Assembly: GCA_964016885.1 (NCBI GenBank)
Contig: OZ024744.1
Location: 33,790,001 to 33,854,000 of the forward strand
DNA: 64,000 nt
Origin: Eledone cirrhosa
Lineage: Eukaryota
Direction of reading: 5' to 3'
Below the pieces are notes generated by a model. The model was not told the DNA's origin. It was given only the letters and a program-made list of their open reading frames with translations, and searched no databases. Positions 34,366 through 59,349 of the stretch are shown in pieces. Made by a program: the position numbers and the translations under genes. The stretch's first letter is position 1; each line of letters opens with the position of its first letter.

Positions 34366-34568
34366 ATAGGAAAATGTTCAAGACCCCGACGGCAGAACTC
34401 AAGCCGTTTCGACGGCTATTTCTGGACCAGAAATAGCCGTCGAAACGGCTTGAGTTCTGCCGTCGGGGTCTTGAACATTTTCCTATTACCCACTCTCCTA
34501 CCCTAAGTATTGAGTACTCTGGTGCGTTATGGTCTACTTGGTTCCTTACCACGCTTCCTTCGTTATAT
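34366..34568 (+). mobile_element. Fold-back element family B, copy 1
   Basis: Perfect 60-bp-arm palindrome 34366-34486 plus ~80-bp unique tail, next to (TA)n. Confidence 0.8.
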
Positions 34569-34692
34569 GTATTCAGAGAACCAATTCTAATTTTGCTTGA
34601 CCGGCAATCGCTCTGTACAATCAGTTCCTGATTATTACTGGAATTCTATAAGAATCCAACATCTATAATTTTCAACAGGCAAAGGCCAGTGC

Positions 34693-34738
34693 TAAGCTCT
34701 GATGATTACCAACAGTATGAAACAGATCTGTCTGCTTA
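34693..34738 (+). ncRNA. Minimal HHR motif, palindromic loop III
   Basis: TAAGCt-CTGATGA-tTAC caaca GTAt-GAAA-CAGATCTG-TC-tGCTTA. Confidence 0.72.
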
Positions 34739-35133
34739 TCTCCCTTTGTTTGTTGAAAAAAGAAGTAAGTGACATAGTCACTACTTTAAAACAATAGCGT
34801 AAGGTGTTCAAAATGTTTTAATTAAGCATACAGTATATTGCCAAATATACTATATATACATTCATGTATACATCGCTATTTCAGAGCACCAATTCTAATA
34901 TATATATGTATATATATATATATATATATATATATATATATATATATATATATATATATATATATATATATATATATACATATACATGGGTGTGTATGAT
35001 TGTGTATAAAAGATTATATTAATAAAAGGAATTCCAACTTTGTCTGATTTACTCGTTTTATTTACAATCGTTTAAAATTATAATGGTATTAGAATGAAAT
35101 AGTATGGTAGAATATTAAATGTTAAGTGTTAAT

Positions 35134-35172
35134 TGAACAAGTACTTTCATGTTTTCGCAATCTTCAGGTTCA
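35134..35172 (-). ncRNA. Minimal HHR motif (truncated mirror copy 35331-35364, +)
   Basis: Minus: TGAAC-CTGAAGA-tTGC gaaa (A/G)CAt-GAAA-GTAC-TT-GTTCA. Confidence 0.75.
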
Positions 35173-35648
35173 TATTCTGTGGTGACAGTCAAGTTTGCAA
35201 TTTTCAACTGTGTGTATATATATATATATATATGTGTGTATGTATATATATATATATATATATATATATATATATATATATATATACACACACAGTTGAA
35301 AATTGCAAACTTGAGTGTCACCACAAAATATGAACCTGAAGATTGCGAAAGCATGAAAGTACTTATATATATATATATATATATATATATATATATATAT
35401 ATATATATATATATATATATATATATATATATATATATATATATATATATATATATACATACATATATATATATATATATATATATATATATATATATAT
35501 ATATATATATATATATATGTATATATGTATATATATGTATATATATATGTATATATATATATATATATATATATATATATATATATATATCTATATATAT
35601 ATATATATATATTATTATTATTATGTAATAAACAACATAAGGCAATTA

Positions 35649-35708
35649 TTCCATTTACCAGTGGTTTCTTAAAAGCAAAAGGTTTTGCTTTCAATCCTCA
35701 GAATGAAA
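35649..35708 (-). ncRNA. HHR motif, same family as the Naiad-like pLTR
   Basis: Minus: TTTCATT-CTGAGGA-TTGAAAGCAAAA cc TTTTGCTTTTAA-GAAA-CCACTGG-TA-AATGGAA. Confidence 0.75.
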
Positions 35709-35881
35709 AAATCCTGGTTTGTTTATTGAATTTGGATTTTAAAAAACAAAAATGCAATCTATATGAAAGTGAGGTTGGAGAAGGAAGAAGGAAAGGAAAA
35801 ATAAAATAAAACTACACATGCCAACACACACACAAAAACACAAAAGCATACATACACACACATACATATATATATATATAT

Positions 35882-56174: not shown

Positions 56175-56346
56175 TAATAGAGAAATGTTTTCTACATCAC
56201 TCATTTAAGGGCGGCACTAACTTTAAAGCCAACAAAGCGACATCGTACGCCGTAAACTTCAGAAAAACGCATTTCTGGACTTTAATTTTTTCAAAATGTA
56301 GGTTTTTGAAATGTTTAAGTTCTCATATTATTTCAAATCTCATCAT

Positions 56347-56540
56347 GGCGGTGGATTGGCAGTATCGGTAGAGGGTTGGACACCATGCTTTGACGCATAG
56401 AGTTACAGTCCTTGCCATTCTGAGTTCAAATCCCGCCGAGGTTAACTTTGCCTTTCATCCTTATTGGGTCGATAAAATAAAGTACCAGTAATGAACTGGA
56501 ATTATTGCTGGCCTTGTGCCAAAAGTAGAAACAATTATTT
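56347..56540 (+). mobile_element. SINE family 1, full length, with target-site duplication
   Basis: GGCGGTGGATTGGCAG...GTAGAAACAATTATT. TATTTCAAATCTCAT lies upstream and TTTTCAAATCTCAT downstream. Confidence 0.88.
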
Positions 56541-58403
56541 CAAATCTCATTTTACAAACGTTTGTTTATAAATTAAATGTTTTCTTTACTCTGTCATTCT
56601 TCTCGAAAGTTTCTGTTTACTACTGACCGAAGCGTAGACGTTGGTGTCGCATTAGATATTTTGGAGAGAGAGAATATCAACATGAAAGAGTTATTTTTAG
56701 TCATATAGGAACACACAATAGCATCTGATATTTCATATGATTGTCCATAATGAAGTACCAAAAATGTCGCACTTCGCTGACCTGGTCATTGAAACAATCA
56801 TCCTTTTAGTGCATATATGTCAGTGACTGCAGTGCAATTGTGTCTGTGACTAGGTCACAAAAGTGAAACAAAATTTCTGACATGGCACAATGCACAATAG
56901 AAACTGGTATTAACGAAACATAAGCGACTTTTGAATATAACAGTTTCTGGTGTATGTACTCAAATGGTTCAAATGACTCCCCCATGACGTTATTGTTGTA
57001 TATATATATATATATTGTATATATATATTGTATATATATATATATATATATATTGTATATATATATATATATATATATATATATATATATATATATATAT
57101 ATATATATATATATATATATATATATATATATATATGTATATATTGTATATATATATTTATATTTATATACATACATATTCACATATGTATATGCTGAAT
57201 TAAGCATATCATTTGTTAATTTCCACAAGAACAACTCACACACCCACTTCTTTTTGTTCTCAATTTGTTTTGAAAATGCTGATAAATATGTATGAATATA
57301 TATATATATATACATATACATATATATGTGTGTGTGTGTGTGTGTGTGTGTGTGTGGGTGTGTGTACATACATACACATATTGTTTGGTTAAATGTCTCT
57401 GCACTCGTTCTTTCCGCTTCAGCTGTCTGACAGTAAGAGTTATGACAATAGACATTATACAAATCAATGATTAATCATCTATGTGGTCCTTGTGCCTACA
57501 AAACACAGCAGTCAAATATTCCTCAAATAACATACTACTACAGCGGTTGCAAGTTAAGGGTCTCGCAATCCCCGGTGGTCCCGGAACCCACAGCCTCAGC
57601 GGTTTCCAACCTATACCCAACCCCTAAAGATCACTACCGCCGAGTTCCTCAGCTAGGTTCATTGACCCCCTGGCCGTCCCTAAGCATACCACCACAGTGG
57701 ATCCCAACCTGACCTTTCTGAATTATTTGTGGTCCGAAAGCTAAGCTCAAAATTTCATTCACTTTGTTAAATATATGATATACACACTCTATTGCGTTTT
57801 CATTCCTCTCTACATGTTAACCTCACCATATTTGTGAGAGGAATATTGATTCAACCTGCTACAAATAGTAGCCAAACGAACCTTGCATGACACCTTCCAA
57901 TTGGTATAAAAGAAATCGGTACATTGGATAATGCAATCTTAAGAATATGTTGCCTCTGAATTAAAGACGGTTTTCAGTCAGGCATAAATGATAAAAATAG
58001 TATAAATTATTCAAAGTAAAAGGAGAATTTGTTGTAGTGAGGTTAAGGATTTGCTTCGAATTTGTTGAATGGGACATGGTACACAACTTTAATTCTCAAT
58101 TTATTCAAAGTTTATTAACTTAAAGACACTGTCTAATAACAGTCCCACCCCACCTCGCGCAGCAATTTAAGAGAAAGGGACATAGAATAATCTGTGTTTT
58201 CTACTCAACTTTGTAACCCAAACTAAGATTCTATCCAACCGCCATTTTACACAAAGTTTGTCATCTCTTCATCATTTCCATACTTGAACTGGTTTAGAAT
58301 TTTCTTTTTCTTTTATTATTTTTTTTTATTTTGGGAACTTCTGTAAATTGTTACTATAATGAGTGCTTTAATGTAATTAATTGTTATTAATGAAACCTTT
58401 TAT

Positions 58404-58506
58404 AAACTCTGATGATTCCGGTCCCGAATTAAAATCTATGGGTTATAATTATAAAAATATAACCCAGATGTTAAAATTCTATGCCGGCAGAAACATTTGT
58501 TAGTTT
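58404..58506 (+). ncRNA. HHR motif with long stem II
   Basis: AAACT-CTGATGA-ttCCGG...(TGGGTTATA..ATATAACCCA)...CCGGca-GAAA-CATTTG-TT-AGTTT. Confidence 0.68.
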
Positions 58507-58741
58507 GATATGCTTTGAATCTTCGATGTTTCTGAAATTTATGTATGTATGTATATATATATATATATATATATATATATATATATATATATATATATAT
58601 ATATATATATATATATATATATATATATATATATATATATATATATATGTAGAGGTTATGTTTAATTTGTTGGGATACAACGAGCAAAATATTTTTATAA
58701 CTGATATAAAGCACTCAACAAATTATTGGAGTAAATATACA

Positions 58742-59128
58742 ATATATTAACAAATGGGAACTATATTTATAAAACCATATTTATTTCATTATACATATTT
58801 CAAGGGCCACCAAGGCAAACTATGGTGCGCTTTCATCAAATAAAATGTAATATAAGTTAGTTTTATAAATAAATATTGACATACCCCGAAAAAATGCAAC
58901 CATTCTGGTTGGAATCTCCTGGATAGTCAAATATTCAGTGAAATATTCCAGGAGATTCCAACCAGAATGGTTGCATTTTTTCAGGGTATGTCAATATTTA
59001 TTTATAAAACTAACCTATATTATATTTTATCTGATGAAAGCGCACCATAGTTTGCCTTAGTGGCCCTTGAAATATGTATAATGAAATAAATATGGTTTTA
59101 TAAATATAGTTTCCATTTGTTAATATAT
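58742..59128. mobile_element. Palindromic PLE-terminus element with an HHR in each arm
   Basis: ~185-bp arms around a ~20-nt spacer (58928-58947). Plus-strand HHR 59022-59088 reads TATTTTAT-CTGATGA-AAG...CTT-GAAA-TATGTA-TA-ATGAAATA. Confidence 0.82.
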
Positions 59129-59162
59129 ATATATATATATATATATATATATATATATATAT

Positions 59163-59349
59163 ATAGGAAAAAGGTATGACCCCGACGGCAGAGCTCAAGC
59201 CGTTTCGACGGCTATTTCCAGAAATAGCCGTCGAAACGGCTTGAGCTCTGCCGTCGGGGTCATACTTTTTCCTATTTCCCACTCTACTACCCTAAGTATT
59301 GAGTACTCTGGTGCGTCCATCTGGTTCCTTACCACAATTCCTTTGTTAT
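59163..59349 (+). mobile_element. Fold-back element family B, copy 4
   Basis: Palindrome 59163-59275 (one indel) plus tail, with (TA)n on both sides. Confidence 0.8.

Follow-up and report, generated by a model that had tools for sequence, protein, structure and literature searches.

Palindromic copies of a Penelope-like terminal repeat in Eledone cirrhosa, read as probable pairs of separately primed cDNAs

The window analysed here, a stretch of 64,000 nucleotides (nt) from Eledone cirrhosa (contig OZ024744.1, positions 33,790,001 to 33,854,000), contains four copies of family B, which is the terminal repeat (pLTR) of a Penelope-like element (PLE) of the type with a putative reverse transcriptase (RT) and GIY-YIG-type endonuclease (EN). 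The copies lie at window positions 34366, 41768, 54266 and 59163, where a preliminary description had already placed them, and all four touch (TA)n, with the arm ends joined to it as that description had recorded. All four had been taken for fold-backs generated when a cDNA primes its own copying. Our analysis leans instead, by a small degree, towards palindromes made of two separate cDNAs of one PLE RNA, primed from both sides of a cut (TA)n tract and joined head to head at a common stop.

Three of the four copies (34366, 54266 and 59163) are palindromes, asymmetric and set within (TA)n, each combining a short arm that ends in TTCCTA with a long arm that continues for about 80 more bases. At the first, a subfamily F short arm on the minus strand (34366 to 34427), with its outer end at TTCCTA(TA)n and its inner end 12 nt upstream of the CCGTC core, overlaps by 1 nt a plus-strand long arm with an approximately 80-nt tail (34427 to 34567; inner end 10 nt upstream of the core). 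The subfamily B copy begins with the long arm (54266 to 54409, minus strand), which a 4-nt insert separates from the short arm (54414 to 54477, plus strand), and both arms end 16 nt upstream of the core. In the third palindrome, a minus-strand short arm of subfamily A (59163 to 59218; inner end 7 nt upstream of the core) shares a 2-nt overlap (TC) with a tailed plus-strand long arm (59217 to 59349; inner end 11 nt upstream). The window holds eight occurrences of the word GACGGCTA, where 0.81 would be expected; the one at 22390 lies inside an unrelated open reading frame (ORF) region resembling a long interspersed element (LINE).

The copy at 41768 proved to be a chimera, in which a long arm is followed by an inverted insert of 9-10 nt and a truncated PLE of another family. 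The long arm stands alone (subfamily A; 41768 to 41903, minus strand), with its tail end in (TA)n and its inner end 7 nt upstream of the core. The insert, read directly from the sequence (41904 to 41913, plus strand), is templated, being copied from the arm, and shares an AAAC overlap with the start of the second element, PLE-C. This 5'-truncated PLE (41909 to 45260, plus strand) also has its 3' end in (TA)n; a frame of 1002 codons is open from 41865 to 44873, with RT-like and GIY-YIG-like motifs by eye but no Pfam match, and a minimal hammerhead motif with a canonical core (stem I AGTCA/TGACT, CTGAAGA, stem II, GAAA) can likewise be recognised by eye at 45072 to 45116 (plus strand). We inspected 29 other PLE-C loci, and the B arm was absent from this place in those seen. 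Among the copies listed, the other PLE-C elements run on into their own upstream sequence at the join point, and family B is therefore not part of PLE-C. PLE-C was also rejected as the family B parent, having its own hammerhead and tail. Elsewhere in the window, at 4101-4615, two PLE-C ends stand head to head, both apparently reaching the tail end (long plus long) and joined just upstream of a AAGATGGCG word, which we take to be YY1-like. Family B arms joined to pieces of other repeats were also seen at L074, L061, L082, L090 and L064. As at 41768, PLE-C is among the partners, met by way of a short microhomology, and one partner family is common to L061, L070, L082 and L090.

Across the genome, exact matches to two arm patterns number 14,964 and 33,262, together at least 48,000, against none for reversed control patterns. 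Longer copies lead to the parent element, in the form of units of 0.2-3.9 kb with B arms at both ends and frames with RT-type and GIY-YIG-type motifs behind these arms, which bears out the earlier proposal that the arms derive from a PLE. By eye, the parent frames of L151-L155 contain an RT-type YRDD and an NVIY...KAYIG segment preceded by a Cys-rich linker, CxC-x5-C-x4-C, between RT and EN, where members of the Neptune or Nematis clade would have a Zn-finger-like Cys motif. Pfam returned GIY-YIG only, in one of four parent pieces and at E=0.069, below its cut-off, and no RT family; Pfam and PDB sequence searches named neither the parent ORF nor that of PLE-C. The parent protein is accordingly described as a putative RT-EN protein, on by-eye motifs and architecture with weak Pfam support. 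The genome holds 61 tail-to-body junctions; in tandem copies the tail continues into the ORF, whose start lies downstream, so that family B shows a pLTR formed by partial tandems with the tail entering the next ORF. Thirty such loci were inspected by eye: 12 retain a full upstream pLTR, 6 start about 7-30 nt upstream of the core, within or close to the stop zone described below, and 12 are cut further in, and an inverted arm stands at the 5' end of 11 of the 30 (7 long, 4 short). Family B thus also displays the inverted, 5'-truncated copy with a one-sided tail that is known from PLEs. A more divergent relative, with core CTGTCGAAACGGCTGGAGCTC and an identical short end, lies in the flanks of L022, L076, L252 and L263.

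Could such structures be artefacts of amplification or assembly? We regard this as scarcely credible and largely refuted: the arms differ within most copies, the ends in (TA)n are fixed and asymmetric, and opposite-strand joints at the stop zone (described below) recur in the raw reads of three other samples and in the contigs of a fourth. In each of these three read sets, the short end on (TA)n is found in 3,339-3,679 reads whose loose ends are (TA)n. On the side of an artefact stands the 34366 copy, which together with its flank is spanned by no listed read or contig. Two drops in depth were left out of the evidence, one in restriction-site-associated DNA reads, whose ends pile up at AATT words, one of them at the stop zone, and the other a 24-fold drop at the stop zone in a contig run whose library is not on record.

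The outer ends of the arms are of two kinds. With sharp peaks, the 374 arms from all loci then sampled divide into 193 short, 173 long and 8 intermediate, and the two fixed ends lie at +47 and +125 from the CCGTC core, about 80 nt apart. The short-arm stop at TTCCTA(TA)n, first noticed in the window, holds there, and 154 of the 193 sampled short arms fall within a 4-nt window. Head-to-head pairs nearly always combine one arm of each kind: 139 of 160 are long plus short, one is long plus long and four are short plus short, the remaining 16 having an arm that alignment could not class. Among the 88 pairs from loci not selected by their centres, the corresponding numbers are 75, 1, 2 and 10. This rule of one long and one short arm also holds in kilobase-long and full-length copies, and in L152 it is the short end that bears the whole ORF, with the long arm as the inverted part.

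All 63 unselected pairs have both arms from the same subfamily (chance expectation 21.8), as do 117 of 119 pairs overall, two of 121 pairs having been dropped for short alignments. Within subfamilies (113 pairs), ten variants are shared between arms against 4.0 by permutation (P=0.002), and four are private. Variants confined to a single arm (88 + 79 = 167 over the 113 pairs) far outnumber the ten shared ones, which indicates that arms begin alike and then decay separately, with conversion playing a minor part. On these counts we reject gene conversion as the chief source of arm identity and uphold the view that the arms are re-made from one template at each insertion, rather than homogenised afterwards. 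The near-identity of arms reported within copies is real in the window, where the 34366 and 54266 pairs are identical outside the centre and the 59163 pair differs by one indel, but most sampled pairs differ by single-arm changes. At 34366 and 54266, each arm pair has a common variant that is absent from every other sampled pair of its subfamily.

The inner ends cluster in turn. The inner end falls 6-18 nt upstream of the core in 185 of 243 arms, with a peak at 12-13, and 23 arms read through for at least 40 nt; 45 of 89 arms without an intact partner within 60 nt end in the identical zone, as do solo short arms that sit on (TA)n. Genome-wide, 10,152 arms end exactly at AGTCC. A pattern extended 29 nt inward has 1,165 matches, so that at least 1,165 arms run through the stop zone; the pattern fits mainly the first arm group, and its greater length makes the number an undercount.

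This zone coincides with a predicted hammerhead fold, in a different register from the one first proposed. A CTC-CTGANGA half had been expected directly 5' of the arm in the parent; the 50 matches to it are scattered, and the 30 of them inspected have differing junctions and no common upstream sequence of that form. None of the 50 (30 inspected) marks a parent, and the canonical motif was rejected as its signature. Nor does the arm read GAAA-CGGC-TT-GAG as a hammerhead half, the register being GAA-ACGGC-loop-GCCGU-C-GGGG. The core is instead UUGA-N-AA, about 50 nt upstream of the arm; the parent reads CCCC-TTGA-N-AA-G, with A, C, G and T all represented at N (position 7) in different copies. 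The minimum-energy fold is a predicted three-way junction (z=-2.27), with stem I formed by CCCC/GGGG and AGGAA/UUCCU, a long, two-part stem II, GAAA, a stem III of ACGGC/GCCGU and then GUC. On this predicted fold, the parent pLTR contains a variant hammerhead motif, the short end sits at the base of stem I and the inner ends fall inside stem II, as the preliminary description had maintained; its single fold point, however, becomes a zone some 12 nt wide, trimmed on either arm. An Rfam scan of the window (E<=1) gave no hammerhead match at family B among 150 of its 202 rows. Two observations weigh against ribozyme function, namely that the U3-A8 pair, formed in 9 of 12 aligned copies, is unpaired in the other 3, and that no stem covaries: 92.6% of cells are paired, with no two-sided change and no excess over shuffles in 12 copies that are too alike. 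In one group of parent copies (L285, L292 and L303), C replaces T at core position 3 with A8 kept, which would break the predicted 3-8 pair.

The position of the stop admits two explanations, and we find it probable that the common stop is the RNA's 5' end. Where joints are not blunt, a G precedes AGTCC in 13 of 23 cases, compared with 23 of 84 for other end positions (P=0.013), and a copied cap would give an extra G. The stop sequence TYAGTY (TT/TC-AGTCC) we take to be an initiator-like word; no downstream promoter element or motif ten element was found at the expected spacing when their consensus was sought by eye. An origin of the stop in a splice acceptor was rejected, as no constant upstream exon follows. 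PLE-C has a stop cluster of its own, with 12 of 58 arms (12 of the 27 ending within 300 nt) stopping 3-19 nt before ATGGCG, that is, 60-76 nt upstream of its hammerhead core. The PLE-C stop thus lies away from its hammerhead, which argues that the stop tracks something other than stem II. By the other explanation, the two cDNAs would be target-primed all the same, but would end where RT pauses at the extended stem II or where the RNA is cut there. The zone does correspond to the internal loop that separates the two segments of predicted stem II, and its spread over about 12 nt would suit a pause; against this stand the distance of 60-76 nt in PLE-C, the G excess at one position, the at least 1,165 arms that read through and the lack of any peak of long-arm ends at the predicted ribozyme cut (GUC, +28). 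On balance we judge a pause or cut unlikely, and the cut site itself was rejected as a truncation point. An internal promoter with an initiator has been described in the pLTR of D. virilis Penelope (PMC2377424).

The centres of the palindromes bear on how the two arms came together. We compared 61 unselected pairs in which both cores are intact. Their centres are distinct in 52 cases; blunt joints account for 13, overlaps of 1-4 nt for 20 and inserts for 28. An identical centre can turn up in different subfamilies, and many kinds of centre are found within each of them. These observations make it very improbable that the palindrome spreads as a unit, as a non-autonomous element resembling a short interspersed element or a miniature inverted-repeat transposable element, copied by the PLE machinery and altered at its centre after insertion. 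The copy number, very high relative to full elements, would suit such a unit, as would the 30 best matches to the 59163 copy, which mostly share one centre in a set selected by that query; the extension of the long-plus-short rule to kilobase-long and full-length copies speaks against it, and the asymmetric ends and distinct centres tell against joint inheritance of terminal inverted repeats and centre.

The same set of pairs was used to evaluate self-priming on the stem II hairpin, the mechanism originally put forward. The short arm reaches further inward in 24 of the 61 pairs, the long arm in 23, and the two are equal in 14; in 18, the short arm holds at least two inner bases lacking in the long arm, even with all overlap credited to the latter. 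In a set of 195 arms, an intact short arm meets a long arm truncated within or past the core 13 times, and in 8 of these the long arm is cut at +47 or later, so that the two arms have essentially no sequence in common; the converse, an intact long arm with a truncated short one, was seen 3 times. Taken together, the 18 pairs and these 8 copies indicate that the short arm is not the long arm's copy, unless centres were revised later. Furthermore, the natural snap-back product with its 33-nt stem II loop retained has no genomic match (main subfamily's loop only) and the product of an apical-hairpin snap-back has 12, against 14,964 arm matches. Self-priming on stem II is therefore not supported in its original form, and a second RT initiation site is the better reading of the short end, formerly attributed to microhomology with the target.

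An amended version would have one cDNA start at the tail end, snap back in stem II, copy as far as TTCCTA and join (TA)n, with the centre later broken and re-joined so that the original loop is erased. In its favour, palindromic PLE junctions have been interpreted as self-priming in the literature (PMC3846280), short snap-back inserts do occur (41904-41913 and several sampled centres), a 2-bp snap-back would account for the centre at 59163, the commonest-looking one, and there are the 12 apical-hairpin matches. The amendment must nevertheless contend with a natural loop kept in no copy, with short arms that exceed long ones as often as the reverse, with solo short arms on (TA)n that have the identical inner end, with the inverted long arm of L152, and with a fixed short end that matches a second initiation site (PMC11167929). 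One-sided deletion after insertion offers a possible, if costly, rescue, and we consider the amended fold-back improbable.

We return, then, to two separate cDNAs, a reading in which two-ended priming is inferred from the centre statistics. The enzyme would cut both target strands and prime both DNA ends, one for each initiation site (+47 and +125). Starting in the upstream pLTR, the two cDNAs would reach about 60 and 140 nt before running off the RNA, at a point that may be a transcription start inside hammerhead stem II, at the A of TT/TC-AGTCC; this is the weakest step. Joining of the cDNA ends would be blunt, would use 1-2 nt of microhomology or would add a short insert, in some cases a templated one; alternatively, a single cDNA might be attached to the target or, as at 41768, to the cDNA of another PLE. 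On this view the stubs would lead no further, and the longer palindromes and the full elements with an inverted pLTR would reflect the same reaction begun in the downstream pLTR.

Several points weigh against this scheme. Over a comparable range, truncation of the long arm is not commoner than that of the short arm (4 versus 3), and a later one-sided deletion is possible. At most sampled loci, 6-7 inner bases of one arm were imposed by the anchor patterns used, the inner ends spread over about 12 nt rather than marking one base, and the G excess is modest, C being also common (7/23). Pairs of one subfamily might also arise if the subfamilies had been active in different periods, and the variants shared within subfamilies are few, as counted above. 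Finally, initiation sites in the anole assay are alike between the strands, which does not by itself give strict pairing of long with short.

More tentatively, and with distinctly less assurance than the two-cDNA reading itself, we suggest that PLE insertion may be obligately two-ended, with a dimeric enzyme acting on one RNA and always making one start per site. The stubs would then be paired strong-stop cDNAs that record the capped 5' end, strong-stop transfer to the downstream repeat would regenerate pLTRs, and the promoter would lie inside a U3-A8 hammerhead formable only in the downstream repeat. If so, strong-stop ends moved to that repeat would rebuild pLTRs, much as strand transfer rebuilds long terminal repeats (LTRs).

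Other repeats accompany family B in the window. Fold-back inserts of unrelated families lie beside (TA)n at 58742-59128, 41508-41720, 33965-34200 and 61898-62526, the first of them with a canonical CTGATGA...GAAA motif at 59031. A piece of a third PLE occupies 38275-39542 on the minus strand, its RT region 48% identical to the family B parent over 180 amino acids, and an Rfam Hammerhead_1 match of 31.7 bits, just below the gathering score, lies at 1174-1218 (minus strand). At 46149-50793, an array of 50 copies of a 93-nt unit (94% identity) has one frame open for hundreds of codons, whose peptide presumably resembles the end of a LINE ORF. Three adjoining degenerate LINE-like elements with endonuclease and RT frames extend over 9200-25500.

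Parts of the proposed reaction have counterparts in other retroelements. LTR elements make minus-strand strong-stop DNA, a short cDNA running off the RNA 5' end, and in L1 twin priming both target ends are primed and adjacent segments copied. On the reading given here, family B would resemble the former in its short cDNA off the RNA 5' end and the latter in the priming of both target ends, and would differ in that both cDNAs cover one RNA segment and are inserted as a palindrome. No literature on paired strong-stop products was found in a search that excluded most subscription papers and supplements.

U3-A8 is a natural, active covariant of the hammerhead core (PMC3088659). Family B shares with the type I U3-A8 hammerheads of that report a UUGA-N-AA core, three predicted stems and GUC before stem I; it differs in its long stem II, in C3 with A8 in one copy group and in the lack of compensatory pairs in 12 copies. 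Non-LTR retrozymes (bioRxiv 10.64898/2026.07.22.740005) are non-coding, pLTR-related repeats like the B units, but form head-to-tail arrays with whole hammerheads, whereas family B is head to head and lacks the 5' half of the core, which sets it apart from retrozymes as defined there.

The closest biochemical parallel is Poseidon PAc of Anolis, for which both target strands were cut and extended in vitro and two internal RT initiation sites bracket the tail (PMC11167929). Two bracketing sites, the use of both strands (as proposed for family B), an AT-rich target and a hammerhead in the pLTR are common to both systems, whereas the proximal site of family B is at the foot of predicted stem I. 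That paper leaves the steps after priming unvalidated and describes neither inverted-unit formation nor strict short-plus-long pairing.

Architecturally, family B belongs with the insertions of EN-containing PLEs, in which an inverted, 5'-truncated pLTR accompanies a one-sided tail, as reported for Pen2a of Adineta vaga (PMC3846280) and Penelope of D. virilis (PMC2377424) and reviewed in PMC8557442. They have in common the head-to-head arrangement, an arm shorter by a fixed tail, a tail at either end of the unit, partial tandems and the targeting of microsatellites; family B departs from them in a tail of about 80 nt rather than 30-40, in its tens of thousands of ORF-less minimal units and in its sharp inner stop. 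The architecture itself is already published, and the gain is mechanistic. How PLE inverted repeats with a one-sided tail are built is posed as an open question in PMC8557442, and family B, as tens of thousands of minimal reaction products, permits a large-sample test of the mechanism. The junctions read as self-priming in PMC3846280 have their equivalent in family B centres that fit two joined cDNAs, and the family B products thus favour two-ended priming over that published reading.

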